DNA from: Psammoneis japonica
Lineage: Eukaryota
Reading direction: 5' to 3'
NCBI GenBank assembly: GCA_008632985.1
Contig: QPGO01000110.1
Location: 62,001-126,000 of the forward strand
DNA: 64,000 nucleotides
The number at the start of each line of letters is the position of its first letter. Within the stretch, counting starts at the first letter, position 1. Both the position numbers and the translations under genes were made by a program. The notes under the pieces are model-generated. The model saw only the letters and a program-made list of their open reading frames with translations. It did no database searches and was not told where the DNA came from. Shown here piece by piece: positions 8,404-64,000 of this stretch.

Positions 8404-8413
8404 GGTTGTGAGC
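8404..8413 (+). other. Primer-binding site (half-tRNA-iMet type), mutated
   Basis: GGTTGTGAGC directly after the LTR; one TA->TG change from GGTTATGAGC, the complement of the tRNA-iMet anticodon arm GCTCATAACC. Confidence 0.7.
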
Positions 8414-14800: not shown

Positions 14801-15005
14801 GATGATCAACAACAAGGTGCCTGCGGAGCGATCCCGCCACGTTGACATTCAACATTTTGCTGTCCAAGACTGGCGTGACGCAGGCAAGATTGTCACTCGA
14901 CACATCCCGGGTGTCATCAACCCTGCTGATGCACTGACCAAGGCTGTGGGTTGGGTGCTCCATTCCCGCCATGCTGCCTGCCGTTTGATGGGACATTGCC
15001 GTTGA
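8844..15005 (+). pseudogene. Copia gag-pol (gag, GAG-pre-integrase, integrase, RT, RNase H), broken by stops and frameshifts
   Basis: WHQRLGHPS pre-integrase motif; integrase DFAF..DQGGE..VERSH; RT QVDDF; RNase H SSTEAEFLAA..IDNSSA..RSRHVDI..NPADALTK. Split across ORFs 8844-9707, 9708-10514, 10633-11805, 11827-14706 and 14637-15005. Confidence 0.9.
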
Positions 15006-15137
15006 TTGTTGTTGGGTTTGTTGTGGATTGAGTCTTGGGTGTGTCTCTGTTTTATTTGTTTTTTGTCTTTGCCATTCTGGTCCTCTCTTTTTATTCGGAT
15101 CGTCTCTTTCTTTCTTGTTGAGCATTGCAATGCTCAT

Positions 15138-15147
15138 CAGGGGAGGG
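15138..15147 (+). other. Polypurine tract of Copia element 1
   Basis: CAGGGGAGGG immediately upstream of the 3' LTR. Confidence 0.8.
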
Positions 15148-15320
15148 TGACAGACATCCCCGAGATGGGGAGTACACTCCCTTGTGTCGGACAGACTAGC
15201 ATAGACAGCATGGAGAGATCCGATGATCTCTCCTTTGCTCACTTTCTTTCTCATCTAGAGTACACGATTATCATCTGTCCTAGACATCCGTTAGATTGTC
15301 CCGATGCCGCTAGTCCGTAA
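15148..15320 (+). repeat. 3' LTR of Copia element 1
   Basis: Direct repeat of 8235-8403; begins TGACAG, ends CCGTAA; followed by TSD TGCGT. Confidence 0.95.
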
Positions 15321-29799: not shown

Positions 29800-31220
29800 C
29801 TGTTTCACTTCAGAAGTTGGGAATTGAGTCTCACCCTGACATTTTGTGAAGTGACATGGGCTGCAGCTGAGCCAGCCTGGCGGCAAAGGAGGTTCGCAGC
29901 TGTCTTGGGATGGCATTGGAGGACTCCAGTGGGTCCCAGAGGATGCATCAACAACAATGGTTGGGAAGCAAAGGCCTTGTCTTGTGTCCACACAGCCCTT
30001 TGTCTCTCTGACATGACTGGGTTCCTTTGCCCAGCCACGCCACCTGCAAAAACAAGAAAACAATCTGTGTGACAGCACAAGTGCTCTGTTGTCTTGGGGT
30101 GGCCTTGGAAGACTCGATCAGGACCCAGAGAGTGCAACAACAACAATGGTTGGGAAGCAAAGGCCTTGTCTTGTGTTGGTGTGGCACCTTGTCTCTCTGG
30201 CATGGCTGGGTTTGGCCCAGCCAAGAACCGTCCTGCTGCAAGAAAGATGAGGGAACTGTCTGTGTGACAGTGCGCAGGCACTCCATGTTGTCTTGGGACA
30301 TTTGCAAGAGACTTCATTGGGTCCTCAAGGAGGCAACAACAACAGTGGTTGCAAAGGAAAAGCCTTGTCTGGTTGTGAGTTTGGTTGCATGTCTTGGTGT
30401 CTCCAACTGGAGCAACAGGCTTGCCGAGGGGTGCGTGGCACATGAATGATTTGGGGAGCTGCAAGCCATGTCTTGGGCAGCAGCAGCAGCCCCTTGCATG
30501 ATCCCTCCACACAAGAAAATGCCTGCACAAGGTGCTGTGGGGAGGCATCAGCCAACCTGCAAAGAAAAGGGAGCCATCTGTGTGATGGTGCAAGCACTGC
30601 ATTGTCTTGGGATGGCTTTTGGCAGCTCAACCTGCAAGAAAGACAAGGGAGTCATCTGTGTGACAGCGCAAGCACTCCGTTGTCTCAGGATGGCTTTTGG
30701 TGGCTCAACCTGCAAGAAAGACAAGGGAGCCATCTGTGTGACAGTGCAAGCACTCAGTTGTCTGAGGACACGCACAAGAAACTCTGTTGGGTCCAGGAAG
30801 AGGCAACCACAATGGTGGTTGGGAAGGAAAAGCTTTTTGTCTTGGGCCAATGCAGCCCCTTTTCTTTCTGATGTGATCGGCTTGCTTTGGTGATGGAGCC
30901 ACCACCCCACCTGCAAAGGCAAGGGAGCTTTCTGCAGACAGTGCCAGTGCCCAGATGTCTTTTGCTGGCCCCTTGGGTGACTCCATTGTGTCCCAGGAGA
31001 GCCAACAACAACCTTGGTTGGGGAGCAAAGGCTTGTCTTGTGTCAACAATGTGGCCCCTTTTCTTTCTGATGACATGACTGGGGCCTTCTTTGGTCCAGC
31101 CAATGCACCTGTGCAGATGCCATTGAGCCATCTGTGTGACAGCGCAAGTGACCAGTTGTCTTGGGATGGCTGTTGGAGGAGACTCCATTGGGTGCCAGGG
31201 CATGCAACAACAATCATGGG
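29800..31220. repeat. Degenerate tandem repeat array
   Basis: Recurring motifs CCATCTGTGTGACAG(C/T)GCAAG, ACCTGCAAGAAAGA and TGGTTGGGAAGCAAAGGCCTTGTCTTG. Confidence 0.7.
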
Positions 31221-34200
31221 AACTTTGTGCCAGTGCATGAGATTGCAATGGCTGAAGGCAGAGTGGCACAGGCCTGCGTTCACATGGTCCACAGTGGCTT
31301 TGTCATTGTGAAGGCAGCAGCAGTGGTGGCAGTTGCTGGGTTTGGACCATCAGCCAGTGCTGCAACAGCTCCAGCAGCAGAGCCTTGGTTTCTCTGAGGG
31401 CTCCTGCTGCTGAGCTTTTGTGGCTGAGATTGAGCTTGAGATTTGCCAGCTCAACCTGCACAGCAAGACTGTGAAAATTTTCATCTTAACAAGAACACAC
31501 TGACAAGATGAAAACTGTGCAGCAAGACTGTGAAAATTTTTGCATCTTGGTGAGAACACATTGACACAATGAAAGATGAGAAATTGACCGACTGCCGACA
31601 CACGGCACACATGCAAAACCCAAATGACTGGATGATTTCATTGAGTCATTTCAAATCATTCAAACCTTCAAAACGGAATGTGAGCATGGAATTTTAAAAC
31701 AAAATTGTCACTTAAAAAATGATGCTGACAGGAATCACCAGGCAGACAGGCTCAACATTGCTGCAAAAACACGAGCCATCATTTCCTCACAAGACACCAA
31801 ACACAAAACACAGGGTTTGTCAAACATCATGACAATGATGTCAGCAGCAAGGGAAGGCAACAGAAGAGCGCCAGGGGGAGGAGGACAATGCAGAACACAA
31901 GGCAAGAGAAAGGCAGGAACTGAGTCTGTGAGTGCATGGAGTTTGGGCAACAATGCAAACAACTGGCACTTTGGCCAATCTTTCAACTCAGACGTTGTGA
32001 TGTTGATGACATGCAAAGGCAGACGGAAGGGAAGACGGCCCTGCAGGGGCCACACAAAGGTGAGCAAAGCACATTCGAAACAATGCAAATGCAATGCTCT
32101 CATCTGTTGCGTGCTCTTTTCTCTTCTTTGCAGGCGATGCTTTGGCAAACTGGTGCAAAACACGAAAGAGACATGGTCGCGTGCAAAGGTGAGCAGAAGC
32201 GCTGTTTTTGTCAAGACAGCCAAGCCCACGCAAAAACCAAACATGTGCAATGCTCTGATCTGTTGCAAGCTCTTTTCTCTTCTTTGCAGGTGAAGCTTTG
32301 GCAATCTGGCATGACAAGCAAAAAAGAGACAAGGTCACAACACGGAACGAACGATGGGATTTTGTGCATGGCGAGCGAGAGTGGATGCAAGGGACAGTGA
32401 AATGAGTGAAGCATCATGCCATCACTGCGGCATGGGAGAACTGGCAGGAGACAGGAAAAAGCCAAGGAGGGAAGAGCAGGAAACAGGAAGCAAAAATGCG
32501 TTCACTGCAGAAATGACAAAACACAGCTGGCACAATCACATTGCAAGAAACACACAGCCAATGTGCGAGCATCTCAATGCAATGAATGAATGTTGCAGTT
32601 GTCAGAAATGAACAATGTTGCAAAGCAGTTGCAATTGCACCCTTGTCAAGAAGTTTTGTTGACAATTGTTTCCTGCTTGGAAGGTCGCATCAATTGTGAG
32701 CGTGAGCTGAACAATTTTAAAATCATTGTGGTCGCAAGGCCAATCTTGTCAAGATTGAATGAAGAATTAGAGTCATTTTCATCAAGTGCCAAATCCCACT
32801 TGGCACATTGAAACAATCATCAAAATCAATTTGTGCACAGTTGATGAGCACTTGTTAAGAACACAGGATTCTCAACAAGAGCAAAACGAGTTCTGAACAA
32901 GAGCCATGATGTTTTCCAGACGACACAACGGCAGAAGAAACAGATGATGTGAGTGAAGCAAGCAGGGGCACATGGTGAGACACTGCACAGAAACACCCCA
33001 AAACATCTCAGCACTCACCCTCAAGAATCGTGATTCTGAAACATGACATGGTGAGCTAACTTCTCACACTGCTGGCATCAAAGAATGCAGTTTGCTGCGA
33101 TGGAGTGTCTCACTCTGCTGCAACATTGCAGCCATGCTCAGCTCTCATGAAATGAAAAGGCTGTGTTGCAAAATGAAAATGACAATTGAAGCAATTGCAG
33201 GTGGCTCAGCAGCTTTGAATGAATGATGAATCACTCAGCCAGCATCCTTCAACTTGCCATCAATTGTGAGCAGATGAGCACCCCCTCCACCTCTTCTTCA
33301 CGCTGGTCATCCTCATTGTTGTCATTTGTTTGATCAGCTGTGAGCAGATGAGCATCCCCTCCACCTCCTCTTCATGCTGGTTGTCCTCATCATTGTTGTT
33401 CATTTGATGTGCGCTTGAACTGTGATTTTTGAGAAGAGTGAAGAAGATTGCCAAAGAGAGGGAAAAAGAAGCCAACATGCAAAGACTTTGCTCCAGCACC
33501 AAGTTGCACACAAGCTGACAATTCCACAAAAATGCTTGGAATTCCACGATGCTTTTGTCCATGCTCTCAAACAAAAAGTCTCCATTTCTGACAATGCCAA
33601 ACACATCTGAGTCCTGGCACACAAGAGACTTGACACACACGCGCTGATGACCTGGCTCTCGCTCCAATCTTGTTTGACATGTTCAACCAAAATGCATCTG
33701 CTGTGGTGTCAAAAAGGAGAGTAAAGAGAAGAGACAAGATTCGTGATCAGCACAGCAAGACTCAATGGTGCACCTCTTCACCATTGCCGTTGCTTCCACA
33801 GTTGCTGTGCCGGAAGAGCCGGCTGGCAGGAACAACCAGCAGTGCCATCAAAAATGTCACTCTGACTGCGCAGCAGCGGCATGCTCTTGGGCCACCAGCC
33901 ATGCCACACTCCGTTGCTTGATGGAATGCCGACAGTTGTCAAACGCCGTTTAGTGCATTCCGTTTGTCATCCCGGAATGCAAAGAGAACGATGGTTGCCG
34001 GCACACGGAATGTGCTTTTCACATTCCTTGAGCAGCCCCCCTCGAAATGGAATGTGAGGCGCATTCCGTGAAAAGAGGCCTCCATACGAAATGTGCAAAA
34101 ATGGCCTTATTTCTTACGGAATAGCTCAGCGGAATGTGAGAAAAAGGCTTATTCCGTGCATTTCCGTGAAGTCTCAGCATTTTGCTGTCATGTTCATTTT

Positions 34201-41833: not shown

Positions 41834-44800
41834 ATGATGAAACCAGCAACGAGTGCAACATGGAAATCAAAGCCTGATAGTAATACTGACTCTTGTATGA
41901 CGTTAGAGGAGAAACAAGTGATTCTCAAGGGCCTTCTGGAAAAGCTGCGCCCCTTTCAGCGAGAAGCTTATGAATTCGCCACCAAGGGGACTCGCTATGA
42001 ACGCCAGTGGGCAAAAGATGATGCTGTAACGGACAAGAAGAAGGATAGTTCCAAGAAGAATACAAAGTCTTTAGGCTCGAAAAGCAATGGAAAAATTGAA
42101 GACGATGACGACTACAACTATGCAAAGAACTTTGTCGGAGGCAATGGGCGCATACTGCTTGCAGACGAAATGGGTTTAGGCAAGTCGATCACGTCCTTGG
42201 CAATCATGGCATACTACGCACAAGAATGGCCTCTTCTTATTCTATGTCCCGCGAGTTTGCGACATCAATGGCCTTGTGAGATTGAAAAGTTCATACCAAG
42301 TCTTCCAACGTCAGCTCTCCACGTGGTCGCGGGGTTTGATGATGTGGCTTTTGGCAAGCACAAGAAGAATCTCAAAATTGTCGTGGCACCCTATTCTCTT
42401 TTGCAGACACGATCGGCAGTGGCACGACTCTTGCAAGAAATGAACTTTCAATGTGTCATTGCAGACGAATCGCACAATATCAAGGAACGCACGTCCCAGA
42501 AATGCAAGCTCGCCATGCCGATACTCACACGAGCCAAACGTGTAGTACTTCTATCTGGAACACCCGCCTTGGCAAGACCGGTGGAGTTGTGGACACAAGT
42601 GTCGTGTATTGCGCCAAAGCTATTTTACGGATCATCTTTTAACCAATTTACGAAACGCTACTGCAATGCACACCGAAATAGATTTGGACGGTGGGATGTG
42701 TCGGGCCTCTGTAATGCCGCCGAGCTGCACTCCAAGTTGAAACTCATCATGGTACGACGATTGAAATCCAATGTCTTGACCGAGCTACCACCCAAACAAC
42801 GTTCGATTGTACCCATTTCCATTGCGAATCCAAAGCTCAAGGCTGAAAGTCAAGCGTTGGTACAGCAATTGCAGGACACACGCACGTCGGTACAAGACCT
42901 GTTCATGGTGGACAGTGCTCGACAAGCTGATTTTGAAGCACGACGACTCTTGATGGAGTGTTATCAAGCAAGTGGTATCGCCAAGGCACCAGCAGTGGCA
43001 GAGTATCTCGTCGACTGGCTCAAGGGGTCGTCTACGCAAAAGATTCTTGTCTTTTGTCATCACACCGCCGTCATGGATACGCTGGAAGACGCCATTACCA
43101 AGAACAACAAAAGCAATCCGACAAGTCATATTCGTATTGATGGTTCCGTCCCATCCAAGAATCGGGCCGTCTTGGTCCGCAAGTTTCAGAGCAATCCCCG
43201 GGTGCGCGTGGCCTTGTTGAGTGTCACGGCGGCCGGTGTTGGATTGACACTGACGGCGGCGAGTTCTGTTTTGTTTGCCGAATTGCACTGGACTCCCGGG
43301 GTCTTGGCACAGGCCGAAGATCGATGCCATCGTATTGGACAAGCCAATGCGGTCAATGTCATGTATTGTATTTGTAAGGATCAACAGACTAGTGTGGATA
43401 TGAGCTTGTGGGCCATGTTGAGTCGCAAAGTGGGAACCTTGGGGAGAGTGATTGATGGATGCAAGGTATGTGCGAACTATTCTTCTTGTCGATTCTCGTT
43501 CTATTTTTGCGGTCGATATCAACAAATAACATCTTACTACTGCATTGCTTATTTGGTAACAATAGGATGCATCCATGGAGGCCAAGGACGCCGACCCCAA
43601 CGACGTACTGTCTCAACCGCGTGGCGAATCTGCCGCAGATGAGTTGGTACGCTTCTTTGCAGAAACTTCGGCTCTGGACAGACAGAAACGTCCGTCCACG
43701 CAGGAACCTGTAGCAAAAGGGTCCATTCTAAGCTTTTTCAAAAAGCCAGCGGCGTCTGCATCTACTACGACCGCTCAATCTGGCGGTGGTCCTACCAAAA
43801 CAAAGAAACAAAAGCTTGAGACAAGCACACCAGTCCAGACGCAACGGGCACTTTCACTTGAGACACAGGCATTTACTCGCAGTGAAAACGCTGGGTACGA
43901 GAAGAAAATGCCGTCATTACCAGATCCGTTGCCCATGATTGCTTGGTCGTGTGAGATGTGTACGTTTGAGAATCAACAACGAAAGAAACAAAGTGGCTGG
44001 CTTGCTTGCGAAATGTGCAATACCCCATATGTTCAAGGTACCGTGACAAGTAATGACACCAAAGCGAAACTATCGCCAGCGAAGAAACAACCAAGCCAAC
44101 CCATTGTGATTGACATTGATTCACAAGAGGAGAAGCCATCTCGGATCGATAGAAGGATACAGCCAAGTCATCCTATTGTGATTGACATTGATTCACAAGA
44201 GAAGAAATCATCTCGTATGGATAGTAGGGTGACGCCAGCGCCTGCGAAGGAAGTCATTGAAATTGATCTTGAGGACGTCGAGCCTCGGCCAGCGCCCGTT
44301 TCTTCCGCAATGCGCGATACTAGCATCGTGACTCCATCCACCGCGAGAAGGAAACGACCTCTGGAGGGCATGTCCAAGGCAACGGAGCCAAACGAAAAGC
44401 CGTGCGTTTTGAAATTTAGTGTTTCTGTCAATAGCGGCCGAGTCATTTTCCACTCTGCGGGTGATAACAGCCAATCCATGTGCACTGGGTTTGACATTGA
44501 TGACGTTTTAACAGAAGAGTCGTGTGACAAACTAATGACGGCGGCAGTGAAACGGTCCGCTGGGCAATCGGCACCGCAGAGCAGTCACGTGTCGGTTGAG
44601 TTTAATGATGCGGAGGTTTTGAAAGGTTGGTACTTGTTCTCTTGAATGCTGTGTTAAAAAGCGCTTCCTACAATCTCACCTTTTGCTTCCTTTCCAAGTC
44701 GTTGACAGACTTCCAGCTGAAGTAGCCAAGGACTCTGAAACTGTGAAGCAGTGTTGCCGAGAATTGAAAGCGTTCGTGTCTGTTTACTTGACCCTACGTG

Positions 44801-50327: not shown

Positions 50328-50676
50328 CCTGCGAATGGCGAAAAGAATGAGGTTATCACTCAGTCAGTGTGGGTGTGCCACGTCCGTATGCGGTTTTCTT
50401 CTCACGCACGGTTAGTTGTCTTCTGACACAACTCACAGCACGTGTGCCACTGTAAAAAGGCATGTAAAGAAACACCTCACAGGAAAGCGCATTTCCGACA
50501 GCGCACACAGTTCAATCAAATGATGATTACAGCACATGTAGTCGGCTAAAGCTAAACACAGACCATTTCAGGAAAGACATGTGTTGACTCTGCTGCTCTT
50601 GTCCTGATGCTGTGTTGACTTGCGGCCGACTTGTGCGCATTTTCAGATGACACAAACTGGACATCAACACAGGTGG

Positions 50677-50953
50677 TGACAGAAAATGAAGGCAAATGGC
50701 AAGAATTCAAACAACAACTCCTTACTGCTGTCTAAACAGCAGATGAGTCTCCGCTCAGAGACCGTCACAGGAGCCGAAAGACGTGCAAGTCGGTGTGATC
50801 GGGCTGCTGTCATTGTTCTTGTGAGCCTTGTGGCTCGAAAGCAAACTGCATCGCGCGTGAACGTTGCAGAACTAAAGCACACAAAACTGTGCACGGTAAA
50901 CTAAACAGCGCACGACACTTCGCGCGCACCTGGATCCTGTTCAAATCCTGTCA
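50677..50953 (-). repeat. 3' LTR of Copia element 2
   Basis: TGACAGAAAAT...ATCCTGTCA, repeat of 57510-57785; adjacent purine tract AAACTGGGGAG on the minus strand. Confidence 0.95.
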
Positions 50954-53900
50954 CTCCCCAGTTTGCTTGAGGAGCCACAGAAACAGATTCGACTTCGGAT
51001 GGAATGAAGTTCCAGAACATGAGGGGGCGGAGAAGGTCCCAGATTTGGGAGCAACCCCAATGCTTGCTGAGAATGTCAGCAGGGTTGCGGGAGCCTTCGA
51101 TGAAGTGGAACTCAAGGCAACCAGAGGCAATTGCCTCACGCACACGGTGGAACGACAGTGCGGTGTGTCGCTTGTGTAACTTGGAGTGCGGGATGGTGGC
51201 ACTGTCTACAACCGACTTGTTGTCACCGAACATGTAACTGACATTACGGATCGGGACGCCAAGGCAGCGCAGGGTGATGCGCAGGTCGACAATCTGCTCA
51301 ACACAATTCCTTGCGGCAACAAATTCAGATCCGCAGGTTGCAGTCTCCACGGTGGCTTGTTTCTTGGAGAACCAATCAGCCGGGAATTTGTTGAGGAAGT
51401 GGAGCATTCCCATGACAGAGCGTCCGGTGAGCATGCAATGGTGCAAGTTTGCATCGACGTAGTGGGTGGCAGTGACGAACTTGCCAAGGGGCGGTGGAGC
51501 GTCCTTCGGGATCATCTCTTCTGCTTCACCATACACGGAATGCATCCATTCATAGGCCGGAGCAGGGAGATCCGAATGGTCGGGCTCTTCCGTGCGAACG
51601 CGGAGAGCACCGTGTCGCATCTTGGAGAGGCACCCACAGACGCGTTTGGCACGATCCAAGTGGCCTTGACGGGGCGCAGCTCGGAAGCTGGAGAGTGACA
51701 TGACGGCTGTGGCAATGTCAATTCGACCAAGGGACACTGCCCATTGGAGTGAACCAACAAGAGACTGGAACTTGTGAATGCCATCGGGTCCCAGCAGTTC
51801 GGAAGTGTCCAGTTCGGGGTGGTCACCCTTCTCTAGAGGTGACAGGGCGTTGGTGGCAGGTTTCTCCCCAAACAGTCGGGCATGGCTGTCGACCATGCGC
51901 TCGATGTACTTGCGCGGAGACAGGCACAAGGTTCCGTCGGGTTCCCGGGAAAAGTCGCAACCCAGATGGAACTCAATGGGTCCCGCACCCTTGAGCTTGA
52001 ACTTGTGCTTTTCCGTGAGAGTGTCGACGAAAGATTGAGGGTCCTTCATGGCAATGGCGAGGTCATCCACATAAACGGCAATGCATTCACAGTGGTCGCC
52101 GTTCCTGCGCATCCAAATGTCGGGTTCGGCGCGGCAGGGGAAGAAGCCTTCAGCTCGCAGGCAGTCGGCGAAGCGCTCGTGCCAGCGGAGACCGGAGCTG
52201 CGCAGTCCATGCAGTGCCTTGTGGATGACAAGGATGTGCCCTTCGAGTTTGCCAAACTCGGGTCCAGCTACAATGTAAAGCTTCTCCTTGGTGGTGGCTT
52301 CAAGGCAGGCATTGCCAATGTCGGTGGCCCATGTCTCCAACTCATTGAGTTCGGCCAGGAAAATCATCAGCCGAAGGCCACGGAGGGAGACCACTCCGGA
52401 GCAGACACTGTCGACAGGCATGTCCGTGAGGTGCCCGTCGGCTGCGAGTCGTGCCTTGTGGCGACCGTCGTGTTTCACGTCGCACACCAGGTGCACTCGG
52501 ATCTTCTTGTGTCCCGCAGGAGGAGTGGAAGACTTGAAGGGCCCGCAGTCATGGAAGACTTCGCATTCGTCGAGTTGGTCCATCTCGAGATTAGTTGCGT
52601 CTCCCCACTTGCGGTTGCCGTTGCGTTCGTCTAGTGACATGGCGTGTTTGTAGTTCCGGGGAACTTCGTGTCCATGCTTGTAGCGAGGTGCAGTGCGGAA
52701 GGAGCGAAGCTTGGCTTGGTTGGCCATGCGAAACAGCTTCTTTTGGCGCCTCGCGATGGTGCGGAACCGCTTCCAGCCATCCGTGTCGAGGAGTCCGTTC
52801 TCTCGTGCATAGATGGCACAGGTGACGGGGTCGTCCTTGGCGATGATGGCAAGAGGCTCGGACGTGATCTCCCCACTTTCCCATTCAAGCATGATGTTGT
52901 AGCTGGAGCCTTTCCAGGTTGGGTCGTGAGGCTTCAGAGGTCCTTCGTGCGACACGATGCGTCGAAATTTCCAAACAGTGGTGTCTTCGTCTTCTTGCTC
53001 AATGTGATTCATGATGTCATTGCAGGCAAGGACTTCCTTGCATTCGTCATTGTTGACAGAGCAGACGAACTTAGTGAGCTCGGGATTGCCGTTCACTTTC
53101 CATTCGTGGTCTTCGACGGCCTTGACGATGCGAGCTCTGTGGCATTGTCCGTCCTCTTGTGGCTGCATGAGGAAGGTACGTCCAATGATGTCTTGCGGAT
53201 CGAAAACTGGCATCTTGGGTGTCCTGATCTCCCCATCAGGAGAGTCGACGGGGTTGTCATCATGGCGAGATTTGATGATGGGTTCAGGTGGCTCCCCATC
53301 AGGAGGATCAAGACGCAGGTTTCGAATGGCAGGATCGGGTGTAGCGGAGCGGACGTTGGACCGGTGGAGGATCTTCTGAGTCTCGTCAGATAGAATCTTG
53401 AAGGTCATCTGGTGGCCGATGTGCTCAGCAATGCCAACGAAGCGTCCACGCAACTCACGGGATTCGGACGGCCAATCGGAGTCATCGAGGTGGAAGCACA
53501 CGGGTTCCCACCAGTGAAAGCGAAGCAATGGGCTGATGTCCGGGGTGGAGCCAGTGAGAGTCTCGAGGGGCGTGCGCCAGTGGAGACGTGGGGACGCTGC
53601 ATGGTTGAGTGTGAAGCACACGCACATGAGCGCCAGCAGCCATGTGTGGGCGGGCGAACCAAAACGATCCATGACAGTGTTCGCCATGCGCTTCACGGTC
53701 TGGTGTCGACGTTCGGCAAAGTTTTGGTGTTGCTGGTGAGGCTCACTTTGCCAGCTAGAGATGAAGAGGGTGCGCAGGACACCGAGCACTTTGTTGCTGA
53801 TCTCAACTTGAGCACGGTCGCTAATGAGTTTGGATGGAGCACCACGTTCACGGATCTGATCCTCGAGTGTGTTGACAAACTCTTTGTCCGTCTCAGTGCC

Positions 53901-56600
53901 GTAGACGTCAGTGACGGTAGACTCGGTGCCAACAAACAGTTGGGCGCTGGTGCAACCAGAGTCGACGGCCGGGGTGTCGGCATGAACGGTGTCAGTGGCG
54001 ATGGGCTCGTTGCGGCGGTGCACATTAAGGGCGGGGTTGGGTGATTTGCAGGCCTTGCGAAGGTGTGTACCGGCGGGCATGCGGGCGCACTGCGTGGTGC
54101 AGTCAAAAGTACGACGGACCGCATCGGCAGGTAGGAAGCCAAAGCAAGGCCGAAGAGACTCGAAGGGGGGGTCCTTGGGCTGTACAGTGCGCTCCGGAGG
54201 TGGAACGTCATCGCCCTTGGGGTCAATCGCATGCAGATGACACTCGTAGAACACGTCGTCGTTCGGAATGAGGTGATCATCGAGGGCGGACGCGTGATCG
54301 GCAGACAAGGAAGCGGACAAGATGGTCTCGTTGACAACGACACGATGACGGCAGTTGCCGCACTCGCCAAACAGGTTGGCAGTGGGATCGTCCTGCAGGT
54401 CAGAGATCGCGTCGCACCACTGGTCGTCGTCAGTGACGGAGTGATCGAGGACGGAAGGGTCCCATGTGTCATCACTGGTGAGGATGACATGGGGCAGGGT
54501 GTCCCATTCGGCATCAGTGTAAGGTCGCATGGCAACATGAGGCAGGCCAGCCTTGATGTCAATGGGGATGACACAGCCATCAGGAGTGGCAATGCGTTGC
54601 AAGCCGTTGGGCACCTTGACAGAGCGATCGTTGACATCCTGTTTGCACCATTCGAGCTGGCCGCAGGAATGGATGGTCTTGCCCTTGCCCGTGCATGCGC
54701 ACTGATGGAGGATGGCGATGACGGGACCACGCTGGGTCTCAACAACGGCACCAGTGGTGACAATGGGGATGTCCACCAATTGATGATCGTCAATGCCCTG
54801 AACGTCGACTTGGCGAGAGGTGCGTGCAATGACGCGAACGTCGTCGCCAGCAATGCCGCCGTTGGCCCCACGATCGACTAGAGCGCCAGTGCGTGTGGAG
54901 CGATGAGCAGAGGCAGAGCAAATGACATTGTGGTTGTCAACGCGGCGGCAAGTGCGGCCGTTGAGTTCTGTGTCATCTGCAGAAGCTGGCGGGGTAGAGG
55001 AAGCGGCGGATGGCCCCGGTCGACTGGCATTGGGGGCTTGGTCAGGAGACAACAGACGTTGCAGATCACCGGGTGGCAGCGGCTTGCGCTTGGTGAGGTG
55101 CGCCAGGATGGGATTGTCCGAAGTGGCGTCCACATGTGGAGCGGAGTCACCAGAGTCAGCAGGAGTCGTGTTGGACAAGTTGACATCGCCGTCACTCCCA
55201 AGGCATTGGTCGTGAAGGTTGGCCGCAACAGACTCATGGCAGTTGCTGGCTCGCGGGTTGCGGGGAGGTGGACGAGAATGCTCAAGGATGATCGCCTTGG
55301 AGGAATCGGGCAACGAATCCCAGAGCCGTTGGTGGTCGGGAGGGAGACGTCTCCATTGGACACCGGCGAGGCTGGGACCGCGGGTGTGGGCAGCATTGGC
55401 CTGAAGGACGTCAACGTCGCTGTCAATGTCGTAGAACACATCGTCGGACGGTTCCTCGGAGCAGACGTCATGTGCGTGCATGGCGCGTCGGGGAGCTTGA
55501 GGTGTCGTCTTGGGTTGAAACGTGCTGTCGCACTGAGCTGCCGCGGAGAGGAGCAAGCCACAGCATTGATCGCATGTGAGGCTCTTGCCACTCTGCGCAC
55601 GATGCTGATCAGCTTGGCTCTTGACAGCACGGAGTTCCTCGACAGGGTGCACGGCATTCTCGAGCATGACGCGCTTCTGTCCTTCAGAGAAGTGGTCACT
55701 GGCCGGGATGAGTGCCTCGCACTTGCGCAACTGATCTTGCCAATGAAGGATGAAGCCGTGGGTCGGACCTTTCCAAGTGCCATCACCGAGACGCGCGGTG
55801 GTGAGGTGCGTGAGCAGGGTGGAGGACTCGATGGATGCGCGGGTGGAGGCAAGCGCGCACTCAGACAAGGAGCGGCAGACGGTCTGTGCGTCAGAAGACC
55901 CCACATTTTCGCGAATGAGAGCCTTGCCCTTGTCGGTGAGAAGGATGCGTTCGAAGACGGCGAACATGTGCTTTTGCTGTTCAGCAAAGAGCAGTTTGTC
56001 TTCGGGGCTGGTCGGTTTGTACGACGAGTCTAGAATGCACTCGACGTCTTGGGCACGGGCTTGTGCCACAAGTGAGGTGTGCCAAGTGTGCCACTGCTTG
56101 TCGGATTTGAGAGCCGTGAAAGCGGTGGGATCACGCTTGATGCCTTGCTTGAAGTCCCGCACCGGGTCGCGTGCCTTGGTCGGGTTGGTGACATGTGGAG
56201 GTGCAAGGGGTGAGCTGCCGATGGACACAGAAGACATGTGGTCGGGGCTGAGGCGGCAGGCAAGGAACTCGTCATGCGCGAACAAAGAGGAGTCGTTGGC
56301 AACATCAAGACCTTTGTGTGCTTTGACAATGCACAGACTGACCAGTGCTGCCAACATGTTCTTACAACCACGGGGCAAAGGGATCACATTGGTGCCGTTG
56401 TCGTGCTCAAGCGAGTCGATTTGGGACGGCATGAACGTGAACAGTTCCTGATGCGAGTCCGTGCCGTCTTGGGCCAAAGCCAAACGAAGAGGACTCCCAG
56501 CACCTTGGGCAAGCACGGTTCCAACCACGTGCTCGAAACCATCGGTTTGTTGCTGACGAGTGAGAACCATGGCAGACAAAAGTGGTGTCAGGACAATCAA
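50901..56600 (-). CDS. Copia gag-pol polyprotein (protease, integrase, chromo-like domain, RT, RNase H), open but heavily missense-mutated
   Basis: Protease LVDRGANGG; integrase TDTV..SDRA..NFAERR; RT YVDD; RNase H YVDAN..SEFVAA..GDNKSV..NPADILSK. Confidence 0.93.
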   Translation of the reverse strand: MIVLTPLLSAMVLTRQQQTDGFEHVVGTVLAQGAGSPLRLALAQDGTDSHQELFTFMPSQIDSLEHDNGTNVIPLPRGCKNMLAALVSLCIVKAHKGLDVANDSSLFAHDEFLACRLSPDHMSSVSIGSSPLAPPHVTNPTKARDPVRDFKQGIKRDPTAFTALKSDKQWHTWHTSLVAQARAQDVECILDSSYKPTSPEDKLLFAEQQKHMFAVFERILLTDKGKALIRENVGSSDAQTVCRSLSECALASTRASIESSTLLTHLTTARLGDGTWKGPTHGFILHWQDQLRKCEALIPASDHFSEGQKRVMLENAVHPVEELRAVKSQADQHRAQSGKSLTCDQCCGLLLSAAAQCDSTFQPKTTPQAPRRAMHAHDVCSEEPSDDVFYDIDSDVDVLQANAAHTRGPSLAGVQWRRLPPDHQRLWDSLPDSSKAIILEHSRPPPRNPRASNCHESVAANLHDQCLGSDGDVNLSNTTPADSGDSAPHVDATSDNPILAHLTKRKPLPPGDLQRLLSPDQAPNASRPGPSAASSTPPASADDTELNGRTCRRVDNHNVICSASAHRSTRTGALVDRGANGGIAGDDVRVIARTSRQVDVQGIDDHQLVDIPIVTTGAVVETQRGPVIAILHQCACTGKGKTIHSCGQLEWCKQDVNDRSVKVPNGLQRIATPDGCVIPIDIKAGLPHVAMRPYTDAEWDTLPHVILTSDDTWDPSVLDHSVTDDDQWCDAISDLQDDPTANLFGECGNCRHRVVVNETILSASLSADHASALDDHLIPNDDVFYECHLHAIDPKGDDVPPPERTVQPKDPPFESLRPCFGFLPADAVRRTFDCTTQCARMPAGTHLRKACKSPNPALNVHRRNEPIATDTVHADTPAVDSGCTSAQLFVGTESTVTDVYGTETDKEFVNTLEDQIRERGAPSKLISDRAQVEISNKVLGVLRTLFISSWQSEPHQQHQNFAERRHQTVKRMANTVMDRFGSPAHTWLLALMCVCFTLNHAASPRLHWRTPLETLTGSTPDISPLLRFHWWEPVCFHLDDSDWPSESRELRGRFVGIAEHIGHQMTFKILSDETQKILHRSNVRSATPDPAIRNLRLDPPDGEPPEPIIKSRHDDNPVDSPDGEIRTPKMPVFDPQDIIGRTFLMQPQEDGQCHRARIVKAVEDHEWKVNGNPELTKFVCSVNNDECKEVLACNDIMNHIEQEDEDTTVWKFRRIVSHEGPLKPHDPTWKGSSYNIMLEWESGEITSEPLAIIAKDDPVTCAIYARENGLLDTDGWKRFRTIARRQKKLFRMANQAKLRSFRTAPRYKHGHEVPRNYKHAMSLDERNGNRKWGDATNLEMDQLDECEVFHDCGPFKSSTPPAGHKKIRVHLVCDVKHDGRHKARLAADGHLTDMPVDSVCSGVVSLRGLRLMIFLAELNELETWATDIGNACLEATTKEKLYIVAGPEFGKLEGHILVIHKALHGLRSSGLRWHERFADCLRAEGFFPCRAEPDIWMRRNGDHCECIAVYVDDLAIAMKDPQSFVDTLTEKHKFKLKGAGPIEFHLGCDFSREPDGTLCLSPRKYIERMVDSHARLFGEKPATNALSPLEKGDHPELDTSELLGPDGIHKFQSLVGSLQWAVSLGRIDIATAVMSLSSFRAAPRQGHLDRAKRVCGCLSKMRHGALRVRTEEPDHSDLPAPAYEWMHSVYGEAEEMIPKDAPPPLGKFVTATHYVDANLHHCMLTGRSVMGMLHFLNKFPADWFSKKQATVETATCGSEFVAARNCVEQIVDLRITLRCLGVPIRNVSYMFGDNKSVVDSATIPHSKLHKRHTALSFHRVREAIASGCLEFHFIEGSRNPADILSKHWGCSQIWDLLRPLMFWNFIPSEVESVSVAPQANWGVTGFEQDPGAREVSCAV

Positions 56601-57498
56601 CTCTGGTTGGGAAGAGAAGGTAGACTCGAAACTTGGGTGAGAATGGACTTGACTTGAAACAGACTTGACTTGAAATCTTGAACTGTCTTAAAATCAGAAG
56701 TCGCCGGGCTTTGTCATCCCGTTCGTTGTCAAGTGCTAAACTTCCCATCCGGTCCGTAGAGTTGTGCCGGCACGTCCGAACCCGCAGCTGGCGGCGCTTT
56801 GGGTTGCTTGCGAGCGGAGCAGCGGGTTGTAAACCCCTGCAGGCAAGCTGACTGGAGGTGGACAAGACCCCCGAACCGTTCTCATTTTATGTCGGTTGGA
56901 TTTCCCGATCAGGCTGGCCAGTTGACGCAGGCGTCAGGCGCTGTGGACGAACGAACAAACGTGGGAAAGCACCCTCGCCCCAACGCAGGCTGCAATCACG
57001 GCTGCTTGCTCTCACAGTCGTCCTCGTAGACCTAGCAGAACTGTAGAGCACCAGTAGTCCGGGGTAGATCAGGTACAATGGACTCGGTGTGCTTGTAGAG
57101 TGGTGGCAAAACCGCAGTCCGAAGAGTGGGTGCAGGTTCTTGGCCGTGAAGATATGTATATATACACATGTCTTCAGCGACGAAGATCCTTGAATATGTA
57201 GGGTTCTTGACCGTTAACCGATGAATAGGTATATCAAGGGATGAGGATCAAGGATAGACTTGGATATGACCGTTGAATGTATGTCTTCAGCGATCAAAGG
57301 TAGTATAATCAATCCAGATATCCAGCGGTAAGGAGACTTGACGGTGACGTTAACTTCCTGCCGATGCCCTGGTATTGAATGCGCGTAGACTTGCCGATGT
57401 ATGTAGGATATATACGGAGGTCCACGTAGAATTGAAATAGCGTCGTTGGTAAATCAACGACGACGATGGCGGTTGCTCAATGGGTTGACAATGAGCAA

Positions 57499-57509
57499 GA
57501 CTGTTAATC
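57499..57509 (-). other. Candidate primer-binding site complementary to a tRNA-Asn(GUU) anticodon arm
   Basis: Minus strand reads GATTAACAGTC directly after the 5' LTR, the complement of GACTGTTAATC. Confidence 0.55.
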
Positions 57510-57785
57510 TGACAGAAAATGAAGGCAAATGGCAAGAATTCAAACAATAACTCCTTACTGCTGTCTAAATAGCAGATGAGTCTCCGCTCAGAGACCGTTG
57601 CAGGAGCCGAAAGACGTGCAAGTCGGTACAATCGGGTTGCTGTTGTTATTCTTGTGAGCCTTGTGGCTCGAAAGCAAACTACATCGCGCGTGAACGCGCG
57701 GAACTAAAGCACACAAAACTGTGCACGGTAAACTAAACAGCGCGCGATACTTCGCGCGCACCCAAATCCTGTTCAAATCCTGTCA
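57510..57785 (-). repeat. 5' LTR of Copia element 2
   Basis: Repeat of 50677-50953; bordered by TSD GGTGG. Confidence 0.95.
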
Positions 57786-60700
57786 GGTGGCAAAATCAAA
57801 GACCAAGACAAGGCGATCATCTTCATTGGAGGGATGGGAAGATGGCATGATCAGAAAAGTGGTTGCGCATGCCATTGGCAAAGGCATCATCCCATGCATG
57901 TGCCGTGCCAGCCTTGGGTGCAACAAGAAGGAGGTTTTGTTTGCAGCGGGTGAGAATGCCGAAGCACCTCTGTCCAAAAGGCAAAGGGCAAACGCGGCCT
58001 TGTTGTTAAGATCCAGATGAAAATCTGCAGGAGGAGTTTCTCCTGACAAGACAAAGACCTTGACACAAGCTCAAGGACCCACATCCATTTCAAGATCAGG
58101 CCAGGTGTCCTGCACACGACCACGAATCTTGGAGAGAACCTCGGCATCGACATCATCAGTTTTCATGGCGCAATCTGATGAACCAACTGGGCCATTGCAC
58201 ACTTTGTCCTTGGAGATTTTGAAGCACACTTCACCTTCAATGGGGTGGCTCTTGATGTGCTCATCTTCCATCTTGCACCAGGTGCCAAAAGCCCCGCGCT
58301 CGAAACTGCACTTGTGCACAATTTGGTGAAGCGCTGCAAGCTTGTTGCCCCATCAAGAAAGCCATCAAAAGACCAGATGCCCGGGTTGGAAGCAATGAGC
58401 TTTCCTCCAACTGGCTTGGTCCATGGCTTGTCAAAATCCATCTCATCAGCAACAACAGCTGGAGCATCCTTGGCATTGCCTTGCAGCTCCTTGCCGTTGA
58501 AGCACTCATTTTGCAACTCTGAGGCTTCCTCCAACTGGCTTGGTCCATGGCTTGTCAAAATCCATCTCATCAGCAACAACAGCTGGAGCATCCTTGACAT
58601 TGCCTTGCAGCTCCTTGCTGTTGAAGCACTTGTTTTGTAACTCTGAGGCTGCAATGCACAACGCAGATGTTGTCATGGCATCACCATCAACACAACATCC
58701 AACTTTGTTGAGAGAATGACAGTTGACTTTGGTGCAAAAATGAGCTCCAATGATGACAAAGCCAGGTTCCATCCATCCACTTGTCTGACAATTTTGCGTG
58801 TGAGTGCACAAACTGCTCTGACTGACAGGCAGGGCCAACAAAACACACACTGGAGCTTGTGCATGGAATCCTGCAACTGCACAGCTCCATTTCTGTGACA
58901 AGCAGAAATGACCTGTTCCAGCTCCAAGTGTTGCTCAGAGGTGTGCAATCCACCGATGGCACATTTTTGTGTTTGGTGCAATGGGTTCCTTTGACTTTGA
59001 TCATTTCAAAAATCAAAGGGCACAATGCTTGTGTTTTTTGTGTGCACTCACCTTTTGATTTTTGAAATGATCAAAATTGAAGGAGCTGCTCATGATCACT
59101 CATTTTTTCACTTTTTTGCTGCAACTCAACTGACATCCAAACACGCCCTGTTTCTCCAGACACCAGACATTTAATTTCACACTGAGTGCACCAAAAAGAC
59201 ATGTCCTCTTGACTTTTCATCTGTCTCATCCACCAGCCCCCTCATTGCCCATTTTTCACTCAAATCTCCAATGCATCATTGTGAAGAAGAGGAAGGAAGC
59301 TGAAGTTGGCCATCAACACAAGTCAGCAACTGGCAGCACCAAAAACAAATGATCCAATTGCAAAATTCCAAGACAATCTGTCCCCTCCCAAATTGATGCC
59401 AAAGGAGCAACAGCCACTCCCTCCAACCTCACCTGTGACAATTCCACCATCACTCCCTCCACACTTCTCTTGCCCACCAAACTTCTGTCAACCTGAGCCC
59501 CTCCACAGAATTCCTGGCTCATCATGAAAGGTTGTCCTTTCCAAGACAACACATCCCCTCCCAATTCCATGCAGCCACTCCCTCCAACCTCACCTCTGAC
59601 AATGCTGCTGTCACTCCCTCCATTGTGCCCACCAACCAAATTTGCCCCACTTCAATCCTCATGCCTTTGGTGCAGCCCACAAAGATCCCCAACAAGCACT
59701 TTGTTGTTCAGAGATCAAAGCAAAACAAGGAGTCTTGTCTTGCACTGCCGCTCAAGAGCAATGAGGGGCTGCCTTCATGTGCACTTTGCATCTTGTTTCT
59801 CACAATGTGGAGCAGTGAAAAACAGACCAAAATCAGATCAGAATCTCTAAAAAGGAGCCCATCTTCAATTGACATAAAATGCAAGAGTCTCCAGTGCTGC
59901 ATGTTTTCTGGCACAGCTGGCAACAGATTTTTGGTGCTGTGCTGCCAAAGGAAACACGGGATGCAAAAATTTTGGCCACATTCTTTCATGGCTGGTGGCA
60001 GAGTTGCAGAGTGTCTCTCTGCCAAGACCCGCAATGTTTTGACCATTCCTTGGTTGACTGGCAACAGACTTGCAGCATTCATGCCAAGACCCACAAGTGT
60101 TTGGTTGACAGCATTCCAGGATGACTGGTTGCACAGAGACAGAGTGTTGCAGTGTGACTGCCAAGAGAAAGCAGGAAAACAGCCACCAGCATGGTGTTCC
60201 TGAGCGCAGCTCAATTGGGTGGGAAGGTCTGCCATTGTCAAACAAGCCTTGTCCTGCCTGACAACTGCATGCTTTGTTGCAACAATGGCCATCTGTGCTT
60301 TCCACACCTGGTTCCAAAGACCCTGTTTGCTGTCATCATGTGATGACAGACAGCTGCTGGAGACATTGTCTCTGAGTCCAAATAAAAAAAAGACTGGCCG
60401 CTGTGCACAGTGGGACTGTTGCTTGCTTTGGCCAACATTGCTCTGTTGCTGTGACTTGGGAAGCTGATTGTGGACCCAGCAACAGACCCAGCAGCTCTCA
60501 AATCAGCTGCATCATGTTGAGCTCTCATGAAAGCAGGTGGTGTCATCAAAACAGAGACACCCAGCCAGGCACTTTTGGTTTGTGACTTGCAGCGTGCATG
60601 GAGTTTGGAGTTTGGGGTGTGCTTGGAAGCTGAGGCTGCAAAACATTTGTCAGAGTGGCTTGCTTTGCTGCTTCACACATTGTCACACCATGTGTTTTGG

Positions 60701-63400
60701 CCCACTGGCTGGCTGCTGCACTCACAAAGGTTGAGCTGTGCTGCCACAACAGTGGTCAAGAAGCAACCCTGTCAAGATGTGCTCAACGCTTTTGACTCAT
60801 GCCTTGGGGCATCATGCAGAGTGTGCTTGGAAGTTGAGGCTGCAGTGAATTTGCTCAAAATGACTTGTTGATGTTCCACTGGCGCTTGACACTTGGTCAC
60901 CATCAGGAGGCCCAGCGTGGTGCCCACATGGCAGCTGCGCCAAGCAACCCCTGGTTGAGCTGTGCCCAGCATGTGACTTGCTTGTGAGTTTGGGTGTGAA
61001 ATGTGCTTGGAAGCCAAGACTGTAAAAGGTTTGTCTAAAGTGGCTTGTTTCACTGCTTGACACTTGGTCACCTGGTCTTGCGTGTGCACACACACACCAG
61101 TGGCTGATGATGCACTGCTCTGTCACAATGGTGGCCAGGCAACCAGTTCTCAAGCTGTGTGGTCCAACAGTTTTTACTTGCAACTTGGGGCATGTGGAGT
61201 GTGCTGAGGAGCTGAGGCTGCAAGTGATTTGTCAGACATGGCTTGTTTTGCTGCTTGGGGCTACAAAAAACTTGTCAGAGGTGGCTTGTTGAGCTTCCGC
61301 TGCTTCTCACACATCTGGTGGCACCAGGTGTTTCTGCACATTGCTGCACTCACCACCAACAATGATGAGCTGCTGCCACAACAGCAGTCAAGCAACCCAG
61401 CTGAGCCATGCCCCAGCACTTTTTGCTTGTGACTTAAGATGTGAGAAGCTTGCTCAGAAGTTGAAACAGCAAACAATTTGTCAGAAGTGGCTTTTGTTCT
61501 GTTGCTTGACACCTGGCGCCACCAGGTTTTTCTGCACACAGTGGCTGCACTGTCACTGCAAGAGCTGTCAAGCAACCCAGCTGAGCTGTGCCCATCACTT
61601 TTCTTGTACTTTGGGACATGTGTGGAGTGTGCTTTTGAAGGCAGAGACTGAAAAAAGTGGCTTGTTTTGCCTCTTGACACTTGGTCACCAGGTTTTTCTG
61701 CACAATCAGTGGCTGCGTTGCCACCACAACAGCCCTCAACCAACCCAGCTGAGCTGCACCCAACACTTTTTCAATTGTGACTTTTGCAACATGTGGAGTG
61801 TGCTTGGAAGCTGAGGCTGCAAAAAATGTCAGAAGTGACTTGCTTGCTGTGCTTGACACTTGGTCACCAGGTGTTTTTTTGTGCAGACAGCACAAAATGG
61901 CGGCTGCACTGCCGCCACAATGGCAGCCAAGCAACACAGCTGTGCCCAGCACTGGTTGCTTGTGACTCAGGGTGTGTTGAGCATGCTCAAAAGCTGAAGC
62001 CATGAGCAGTTTGCTGTGAGAGGTTTTTGTTTGCTGCTTGACATTTGGCACCACAGGGTGTTTCTGCACACACAGTGGCAAGAAGGCGCTGTCACCACAC
62101 TTGGCAAAAAGTGACCCGGCTGAGCCAATGTGTTCAACACTTTCAACTTGAGTTTTTAAAATTTAAGTGTTCAAAGCCTGCCTGAAAATCCAAGGAAAAA
62201 CAGCAAGTCAGAAGTGACCACTTTGGCTTCATGGTGCTTTGTTGCCAGGGTGTGTGTGCCCTGCTTGCAACTCACCTTTGAGACCCAGAATTCTTGACAA
62301 AGCAACGCAGACCCAAGTCAGTGGTGCACTGACTGCAGATGTTGGCAGTGGCCACCCATTGCACCAAATTCCCACTCCTTGCTGTTGCTGCCTTTGTCAC
62401 CCCCCACAGGGACAACTGCCCCTCCACACTTCTGGAGCTTCTTTGCAAAATCTGTGCAATGAGCTTGAGTGTGATCGTTCACTGCCTTGGAGCGCCACCG
62501 GCAGCACTGCATCTTTGTCCTCAAGCAGCATGTTTTCTCTCATCAAAGCCAGCTTTCCCATTGAGCAGACTCTTTCTGTGTGACTCTCAGCATTGGTGGC
62601 ACCAATCTGAGCTAGAGAGCAGCTTGCCATGAGAGGCAAGAACATCCAAGCTGCTTGCGCTTCTTCTCTGATGACTCCAGCTTCTTGCACAAGACACACA
62701 CGTCCAGCTTCAGCAAGTCTCCAATGTCTGAGATTAGATTTCTCCAATGGCACCTTCTCACTTGGACACTCTTCATGCCACATGACCTTCAACTGAAGCC
62801 AGCTTTTGTGACAACTTTCTTGAGCTCTCACAGAGCACACAGCCTTTTCTCTTTGTTGCACTGACCACAGGAGTTTTCTCTGCTGACTGGGCACAGCTGC
62901 TGTGGTCATGTGAAGAGTTGGTGTCAGAGCCACCAAAGATGTCATGCTCTCATGTTGAGACCACCAGCACTTGCACAAGGTGCCAAAACAATGTCCTTGT
63001 TGGCTGCTGATCAGCTGCAGCCAGTCTCAAGCTCGTGCCTTTCTGCAGCCCAGCTGCTGTGTCAGCCTCTTCTTTCTTTCACTTCTCCTCTGCTTCTTTC
63101 TTTTTTCTCTCTTCCGCACATTGGTGTGAAAAGTGGTGGCATGCCAATGGTCTTCCGGCAGAGGCTGGGGCATGTTGGCAACTGCTTGCAGGCCCAGAAC
63201 ACAAGACATGATGGCATGGCCACCGCCACAACTGGCCATCAAACTTGATTCTTCTCCCTTGTTTTGACTCAAAAACTTCTTTTGAAATTGTCATGTTCAT
63301 CAAGCTTTGAAAGACTGCCATCCATTGGATCTTGTGGTGTGCATCACTTCACTGTAAAAGACGGCAAAAGACCGCCATGGAGCAGAAATTCGCCTTCCTC
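57786..63400. other. TpA/CpG-depleted domain: decayed gene-like sequence and degenerate tandem repeats
   Basis: About 15 TpA in ~5.5 kb by manual count; 124-bp tandem duplication at 58402-58650; ~170-195 bp repeats at ~60550-62150. Confidence 0.8.
60550..62150. repeat. Degenerate tandem array, unit ~170-195 bp
   Basis: Recurring CACCAGGT(G/T)TTTCTGCACA, CAACCCAGCTGAGC and GTGCTTGGAAGCTGAGGCTGCA. Confidence 0.75.
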
Positions 63401-64000
63401 GCGAGGCACGTGCGCATGCATGATCTTGCACAGGCTCAGATATTGTGGATGGTGTGTGTGTCATCATGCCAGTGAAAATGTCTCAGTAACCTTTGACGAT
63501 TTAAGCCCCGATGTCTTTTACATTGTACGGCATGCGTTGCGATTTGTCCCCATTTTTGTTTTCAGACACGACAAGACGATGAAATGTGTTGTCGAATTTC
63601 TTCTCTACTGGCTCTTGTACTTATCATTTTGATTGAGCATGCTCGATCTATTGTCCTTCATAGTTTTACAGGCATCATTAGGGACAGGAAGGATGACGCT
63701 GAAGAGTACAGAACAAACGCGGGCACAAGTTCAAAGGGTCAGGTGGAACTCGAGAGCAAACACTTGGAGTTGTGTCGAAAGGCAAGCCATGGTCAACTAC
63801 AAGACCCTCGGTATCTATATATTGGTTTGCGGTTCACAGCAGTCGCCATACCGCGAAATGCGAAGATAACTGCCGCGAAAATCATGTTCTACGTCGACAG
63901 AGAAGCCAACCTAGAGAGTGCAAATGAGTTTGGTCACAATAGAAATGTGAGCATTACGATTACAGGAGAATACGTGGGGGACGCACCACCCTTCAGCGCG

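Follow-up and report, generated by a model that had tools for sequence, protein, structure and literature searches.

Probable erasure of TpA dinucleotides after integration in a Copia-type retrotransposon of the diatom Psammoneis japonica

The insertion and its two LTRs

The DNA analysed here is a 64,000-nucleotide stretch from Psammoneis japonica (contig QPGO01000110.1, positions 62,001 to 126,000), referred to below as the window. It carries on its minus strand, at 50677-57785, a complete Copia-type long terminal repeat (LTR) retrotransposon in which the dinucleotide TpA (TA) is severely depleted. The 3′ LTR is the left copy (50677-50953, minus strand, 277 nt) and the 5′ LTR is the right copy (57510-57785, minus strand, 276 nt). 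Both begin with TGACAG and end with CTGTCA, and the 5-bp target-site duplication GGTGG is found to the left, at 50672-50676, and to the right, at 57786-57790. Since the LTR ends are identical and GGTGG stands on both flanks, both LTRs derive from one insertion, and the element has the paired direct LTRs, TG..CA termini and 5-bp target duplication of the Ty1/copia group. The gag-pol open reading frame (ORF; 50901-56600, minus strand) is open over 1899 amino acids, and its product has a single Pfam match at an E value of 0.001 or better, RVT_2 (PF07727; residues 1361-1572, E 9.7e-25). A homology search returned 1319 related polyproteins, of which the best 120 are 59-72% identical to the element and all contain PF07727 (120/120). 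Self-comparison of the window revealed no further copy of this Copia family. The polyprotein frame extends 53 nt inside the 3′ LTR and ends beyond the last residue of 68 of 70 aligned homologues (residues 1871-1889), the other two reaching 1899. Residues 1878 and 1881 are encoded by CAA and TGG, so the original TAA or TAG stop codon may itself have been erased.

Normal DNA in the window has a TA observed/expected ratio (o/e) of about 0.55 and a CG o/e of about 1.0. The hypermutated internal zone of the element (50954-57026, minus strand) has a TA o/e of 0.15 in 50954-56600 and 0.29 in 56601-57026. The heavily mutated left LTR retains 5 TA and the lightly mutated right LTR 11. Between the internal zone and the right LTR lies a spared part of the 5′ leader (57027-57509, minus strand, 480 bp) with 42 TA and a TA o/e of 1.09, which falls inside the range of 0.38-1.22 found for the leaders of unmutated relatives. 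CA and TG are not enriched in this part (mean o/e 1.07 in the bin 57001-57500), and below 57027 TA turns sparse abruptly. To the left of the insertion, a flank of 123 bp (50554-50676) contains zero TA and looks TG-rich, which may reflect leakage of the process or chance.

Global alignment of the two LTRs gives 257 identical columns, 19 transitions, no transversions and 1 one-base indel. Under the assumption that two thirds of substitutions are transitions, 19 out of 19 has a probability of 4.5e-4; by way of control, three repeat pairs from normal parts of the window show 22 transitions and 22 transversions in total. Seventeen of the 19 substitutions fall in pyrimidine-purine (YpR) steps, compared with 144 of the 277 LTR positions (binomial P 7e-4). 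At six sites the difference is one-sided, the right LTR having TA where the left has CA (50715, 50737, 50916) or TG (50795, 50815, 50848). Four sites (50766/7, 50796/7, 50811/2, 50931/2) are complementary, one LTR reading CA where its partner reads TG, and these account for eight substitutions. At a further three (50865, 50868, 50912) the right LTR reads CG and the left TG or CA, which is CpG decay, while two changes (50804/57637 and 50933) belong to neither class.

An initial annotation of this DNA had already assigned the left copy as the 3′ LTR, correctly, and had proposed that most LTR differences go back to an ancestral TA mutated to CA in one copy and to TG in the other. All of the strings that it quoted are present in the alignment, and its nine clusters take in 16 of the 19 substitutions; left out were the C/T difference at 50804 and, at 50864-50868, an indel together with one T/C and one A/G difference. 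The CA-versus-TG description applies to just the four complementary sites and not to most, given the six one-sided differences and the three sites of CpG decay. A double hit from TA to CG, which it also envisaged, is not what is seen at 50912; this is an ancestral CG, since 96% of the contig depth from other family members reads G. Its placing of the changes after insertion stands, because the target duplication is intact while the LTRs of this one insertion differ. If TA is assumed to be ancestral, 10 of 15 inferred TA are gone from the left LTR and 4 of 15 from the right.

The LTR pair on its own could also be read as the product of C to T deamination alone. On this explanation CpG decay acted in both LTRs, CpA to TpA changes like those of fungal repeat-induced point mutation (RIP) created the TA of the right LTR, and the CA/TG sites descend from CG, an origin that the initial annotation itself raised as a caveat. 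CpG decay is real at 50912 (the 96% G just mentioned), 50865 and 50868, and diatoms possess RID-related DNMT4 genes, described as of unknown function in the relevant passage of PMC9998398. CG ancestry of all four complementary sites is, however, improbable. It would require that the 4 CpG hits of the right LTR all fall among the 7 left-hit of 24, a coincidence with a probability of 0.003 compared with 0.15 for the equivalent coincidence under TA ancestry (both hand calculations). Moreover, the right LTR and the leader match unmutated relatives in GC content and TA o/e. Together with the coding sequence, which as described below already contradicts this explanation for the ORF, these points make C to T deamination alone very unlikely.

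Direction and context of the changes

The direction of change can be read from the element's own ORF, using as outgroup 70 full-length homologous proteins aligned with the 1899-residue sequence. Strict tyrosine columns, defined as those with Tyr in at least 80% of the 70 homologues, number 37. At these the element has Cys 19 times, His 7 times, Tyr 8 times, Phe twice and Trp once, so that 26 of 37 conserved tyrosines have been lost to Cys or His. Control columns were retained almost throughout (His 28/29, Cys 6/6, Gln 22/23, Arg 54/56, Trp 22/24). No conserved His, Cys, Gln or Trp has become Tyr or a stop codon, as C to T deamination would demand; 78 of these 82 columns are kept and 4 became other residues. 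When each homologue was left out in turn and treated in the same way, none exceeded 3 of 37 Tyr columns. The consequence is visible in overall composition, with Tyr at 0.84% of residues compared with 3.86 +/- 0.32 in the 120 homologues (minimum 2.86), Cys at 3.05% compared with 0.97% (maximum 1.61) and His at 4.79% compared with 3.51% (maximum 4.62).

Across all 752 conserved columns there are 86 differences, 61 of them reducible to a single nucleotide step and 25 unresolved. The single steps comprise 29 A>G changes, 24 of which are in the context T[A]N, 8 T>C changes (8/8 in [T]A), 4 G>A changes (4/4 in C[G]), 1 C>T change in [C]G and 19 transversions. The polarised C>T and G>A changes are therefore all at CpG (5/5), and among the polarised ORF changes there is not one case of CA or TG becoming TA. 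The claim that an ancestral TA gave rise to CA or TG accordingly holds wherever the outgroup test is possible. Either base of the dinucleotide can be hit, as had also been proposed: Tyr to Cys and Tyr to His stand at 19:7 at the strict columns and at 24:13 at columns with at least 50% Tyr, and other copies of the family show both TGY and CAY at outgroup-Tyr codons. The choice of strand along the ORF is unclustered (20 runs compared with 17.9 expected, hand runs test), and the loss of 10 of 15 TA in the left LTR agrees with the 26 of 37 at the polarised Tyr codons.

Other copies, older blocks and environmental relatives

Other copies of the family were examined in the contigs of a single sample (four runs), which is probably the one that the window itself came from and which yields thousands of family pieces. 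The family is extremely abundant, with a summed contig depth of 50,000-230,000 compared with 59 for the flank contig. The contigs of run X1 differ from the window copy by A>G at 120 places, T>C at 110, C>T at 90 and G>A at 92, and by transversions at 48. The states of the copies were combined with the outgroup at 35 listed coding places. At residue 1779, which is Tyr in 69 of the 70 outgroup sequences, the window has TGC, and CAC letters account for some 40% of contig depth. At residues 1675 and 1573 the window has CAT and the majority of copies TGY, the outgroup being Tyr, and residues 1309 and 1311 occur in three states among copies; for these five residues the outgroup is Tyr or Phe/Tyr. 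Conversely, residues 1690, 1683, 1317, 1307 and 1789 retain TAY in the window where TGY makes up 32-75% of the depth. TA dinucleotides have thus been hit independently in each copy, and comparison between copies shows complementary outcomes at one and the same ancestral TA. The window copy alone carries six changes of CG to TG or CA (50912, 51708, 52344, 52421, 53039, 53327), two of TA to CA (52419, 53780) and four A>G or T>C outside TpA (50933, 52239, 52257, 53244). A majority-rule consensus of the family will not be ancestral, because some 70% of TA sites are hit per copy and the majority state is often the derived one.

These contigs also bear on a purely technical explanation, that modified bases (5-methylcytosine at CpG, or a modified TpA) caused strand-specific transition miscalls in long reads. 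A modified dinucleotide that is palindromic would, when sequenced on both strands, indeed yield a CA/TG pattern. Nonetheless, 70% of the element's sampled 31-mers are present in the X1 contigs, which average about 200 nt, the unique flank contig shows 0 differences from the window, and the contigs themselves contain TA, CA and TG states among copies. Near-100% miscalling across thousands of bases is implausible, and the signature recurs in two environmental contigs from other assemblies (see below). A basecalling artefact is accordingly highly improbable.

Sheer abundance might be taken to favour a compositional explanation, either GC-biased gene conversion among the copies or selection on the RNA against UpA and CpG; RNA viruses do combine suppression of CpG and UpA with an excess of CA and TG. 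Destruction of 26 of 37 conserved tyrosines was, however, not selected, a general bias from weak to strong base pairs would not leave 5 A>G changes outside TpA against 24 within it, and the two LTRs of a single insertion differ. Context specificity already contradicts conversion and selection as the source of the composition, and we consider this explanation extremely improbable.

The element is not the only part of the window to have been affected. Four blocks are virtually free of TA, with 0-5 TA per 500 bp, a CG o/e of 0.07-0.7 and a CA/TG o/e of 1.5-2.0, and their borders with normal DNA are abrupt. They lie at 5000-15000, which contains a second Copia element, at 17000-19000, at 27000-34000, which has internal repeats of about 96 nt, and at 57786-63500, which adjoins the right end of the element and includes a tandem duplication of 124 nt (58396-58643) with 6 transitions and 1 transversion between its copies. 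No Pfam transposon domain was found in the ORFs of the 17-19 kb, 27-34 kb and 58-63.5 kb blocks. In the window the affected blocks are transposons or repeat-rich DNA with sharp edges, and the family of the focal element is highly repeated. TAA and TAG have all but vanished from the TA-free blocks and TGA is frequent there; because TAA and TAG have been erased, long frames are open on both strands. In the blocks at 5000-15000, 27000-34000 and 57786-63500, where TAA or TAG occurs at about 1-2 per kb and TGA at about 24 per kb, there are many non-gene frames of 180-960 codons.

The second Copia element, Copia 1 (8235-15320, plus strand), is older. Its LTRs, at 8235-8403 and 15148-15320, are flanked by TGCGT on both sides and differ by two 2-bp indels and 6 substitutions, all of which are TA versus TG or CA, with 0 transversions. 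The body of Copia 1 contains almost no TA, its ORF encodes 0.2% Tyr, 5.9% Cys and 4.5% His, and its Copia domain matches are weak. The relative rates of the two kinds of change can be read from the focal element, where the CG o/e is near normal, at 0.93, while the TA o/e of the body is down to 0.15. TA loss is therefore the faster arm, and in every TA-free block it is more complete than CG loss. Among the TA that survive in old blocks, ATAN makes up 13 of 80, compared with 51% in normal DNA, and TTAA, GTAA, CTAA and CTAG are well represented; the polarised sample is too small to name a recognised base flanking TpA.

The blocks help to weigh the possibility that the changes were made during retrotransposition. 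RNA editing of the ADAR type or deamination of single-stranded complementary DNA (cDNA) would have altered the element, differences between the LTRs would come from unrepaired heteroduplex, and sequence near the primer-binding site would be least exposed. ADAR enzymes leave an A-to-G signature and favour a UA context, and the gradients made by APOBEC3G in the human immunodeficiency virus are the basis for expecting damage to follow the time for which minus-strand cDNA is single-stranded. Some features are of this kind: there is a modest coding-strand excess of A>G (19:7 and 24:13), the spared zone adjoins the inner end of the 5′ LTR, where that time is shortest, and the 3′ LTR has been hit more than the 5′ LTR. 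Sense-only A-to-G change before integration is nevertheless not what is found, as both strands were hit, with T>C changes at TpA in 8 of 8 cases and with CA and TG outcomes inside one LTR, and the LTRs of one insertion differ. There is no rise from 5′ to 3′ (3 conserved Tyr are kept before residue 1200 and 11 after it), the switch at about 57027 is abrupt and ungraded, and in Copia 1 the 5′ LTR is the more heavily hit of the two. Moreover, TA is likewise missing from tandem repeats and from blocks in which no retroelement domain can be recognised, and the near-complete loss in old copies would require repeated rounds on copies unable to transpose. An origin during retrotransposition is, on balance, unlikely.

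Relatives of the element were also sought among metagenome contigs. When the mutated protein itself was the query of a scan for related loci there was no match, probably because the peptide words of the query carry the mutated residues; an alignment-based scan gave 79 related environmental loci. Their TA o/e ranges from 0.31 to 1.0, and the fraction of Tyr columns changed to Cys or His is at most 0.17 in 77 of the 79 (median 0.03). In the remaining two, L066 (1-2759) and L034 (1-2561), this fraction is 0.40 and 0.32 and the TA o/e 0.31 and 0.33, respectively; their identity to the window protein is 64-65%. Polarised changes in L066 comprise 20 A>G (17 in T[A]N) and 7 T>C (7/7 in [T]A), whereas four control environmental loci show chiefly CpG transitions and transversions. 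The presence of the same signature in two unrelated environmental contigs argues against an artefact of one assembly. CG o/e is 0.1-0.5 in many of the environmental relatives. GC content is 0.55-0.62 in the body of the element, 0.47 in the leader bin 57001-57500 and 0.33-0.58 in the relatives, and a raised GC content of the body is a prediction of A:T to G:C conversion. A bias towards A>G on the coding strand was considered and is not claimed, since the ratios of Tyr to Cys and Tyr to His of 19:7 or 24:13 in the window compare with 8:6 in L066 and 3:5 in L034, all taken from Tyr codons, the one class free of bias.

Candidate processes and known systems

The most natural interpretation is that a young Copia insertion was hit after integration, at the level of DNA, by a process that erases TpA and is aimed at transposons or repeats, and we regard this as likely. 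Several observations weigh against it. Five of the 29 polarised A>G changes lie outside TpA, and restriction to repeats is seen for this window only. The contigs that supply the other copies probably come from the same sample as the window, so independence of assembly is lacking. LTR sites could be polarised directly from other copies at only about five places, among the 40 of 465 variable places that were listed, and these include the CG-ancestral 50912 and 57637, which is a plain C>T change private to the right LTR and outside any YpR step. Position 50932 is G in 90% of other copies and 50933 is A in about 100%, as would be expected if TA became TG in the majority of copies; the site 50931-3 is also readable as ancestral CG. 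The greatest difficulty is presented by the leader at 57027-57509, which keeps all its TA despite susceptible contexts, next to a right LTR that seems to have taken 4 hits, and which is poorly accommodated by a simple model of mutated tracts and by a simple one in which the 'whole repeat' is the target. One X1 contig joins 56792 to 57490, and contig depth is lowest over the leader, at 57169-57415. It may be guessed that many copies lack this stretch, which would fit a trigger dependent on homology.

The data demonstrate the direction of change, its limitation to TpA and CpG, its action on both strands and in integrated DNA, its independence from copy to copy and from LTR to LTR, and its confinement to blocks with sharp borders. 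A process with two arms would account for the composition of the blocks. In the fast arm T:A at TpA would become C:G, so that a given strand shows CA or TG according to the strand hit, and in the slow arm, ordinary decay of methylated CpG, CpG would become TpG or CpA. Both arms would end in CA and TG. The data are compatible with an attack on either T or A. On the thymine side, oxidation of the TpA thymine could generate 5-hydroxymethyluracil (5hmU) or 5-formyluracil mispairing with G, a step modelled on the 5hmU of dinoflagellates; oxidised thymines such as 5-formyluracil are known to mispair with G. On the adenine side, the step could be taken by a DNA adenine deaminase with a preference for a 5′ T, and deaminases of the TadA/ADAT type act on A after U. 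Thymine oxidation or an adenine deaminase would be the most likely chemical steps. When off-target changes are taken as changes of thymine, 7 of 12 are at TpC (hand tally), which is only a hint. Such a system would kill transposon genes without stop codons, leaving DNA that is GC-richer, free of TA and rich in CA and TG. The process may be an enzymatic, RIP-like genome defence, and we lean, with some reserve, towards the view that some diatoms have a defence of this kind, in effect a 'reverse RIP' converting T:A to C:G at TpA in repeats, which would be the first repeat-directed hypermutation from A:T to G:C.

There is a close likeness to RIP in Neurospora and other fungi. Both processes make only transitions and have a strong dinucleotide preference; both approach completion in old copies, inactivate transposon genes and leave the LTRs of one element different. 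RIP is confined to repeats with sharp borders, and within the window the affected blocks are transposons or repeat-rich DNA with sharp edges. RIP converts C:G to T:A at CpA and makes TpA, whereas here T:A is converted to C:G at TpA, destroying TpA and raising GC content. In place of C:G to T:A changes mostly at CpA that create TpA, the opposite polarity is thus observed. By the same token, no stop codons are made here, unlike in RIP; TAA and TAG are removed and frames remain open. The hosts also differ, being fungi for RIP and here a diatom, and a further difference is the unclustered choice of strand along the ORF.

The slower arm, CG to TG or CA, is methyl-CpG decay itself. All five polarised C>T and G>A changes are at CpG, as are six of the private changes, and the CG o/e of old blocks is 0.07-0.7. 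Diatom transposons are CpG-methylated, according to the passages of PMC9998398 that deal with them. Such decay cannot explain the loss of TA.

ADAR and APOBEC3 resemble the present case in producing clustered transitions in retroelement copies. Their targets are RNA or a single cDNA strand prior to integration, and the patterns that they leave are one-stranded, whereas here both strands are altered after integration and sequences other than retroelements are affected too.

A further parallel is offered by dinoflagellates, in which 5hmU is made by TET/JBP enzymes and is enriched in repeats; in A. carterae transposons are marked and silenced, as described in PMC11572971. In C. cohnii, where the bias is strongest, 5hmU has been shown to take the place of T above all within TA and TC dinucleotides (PMC11572971). 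This is a repeat-aimed modification of thymine in another lineage of the stramenopile, alveolate and Rhizaria group, and the main target here is the T of TpA; the relevant passages of that source report no mutational footprint. Any link from dinoflagellate 5hmU to this diatom would be one of analogy.

In the literature searched (open-access papers and bioRxiv) we found no account, for diatoms or any other organism, of repeats hypermutated from TA to CA or TG, and in a term search Maumus et al. (2009; PMC2806351) proved to contain nothing on dinucleotides, deamination or hypermutation. The chances are fair that the process involves a DNA chemistry of a new kind. If the interpretation is true, a second and chemically distinct repeat-directed hypermutation would stand beside the fungal one, and a chemistry new to any eukaryotic genome defence would be needed. 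It would occur in major marine primary producers, whose RID-like DNMT4 genes have no known function, and would point to a DNA-modifying activity on T or A at TpA, of relevance to epigenetics and to the enzymology of base editing. In practice, ages estimated from LTR divergence are badly inflated for this genome: of the 19 differences behind the raw divergence of 6.9%, only about 2 lie outside the hypermutation classes. The very long open frames of dead transposons would mislead gene finders, and old copies drift beyond the reach of homology searches.

Two further genes lie in the window. A host sulfotransferase gene (20301-21308) has named relatives solely in diatoms, at identities of at most 59%, and these relatives place the host among the diatoms. 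The second gene (41834-43642) encodes an SNF2-family helicase of 602 amino acids and is intronless; the Atlas clusters nearest to it are for the most part viral (Uroviricota, Nucleocytoviricota).

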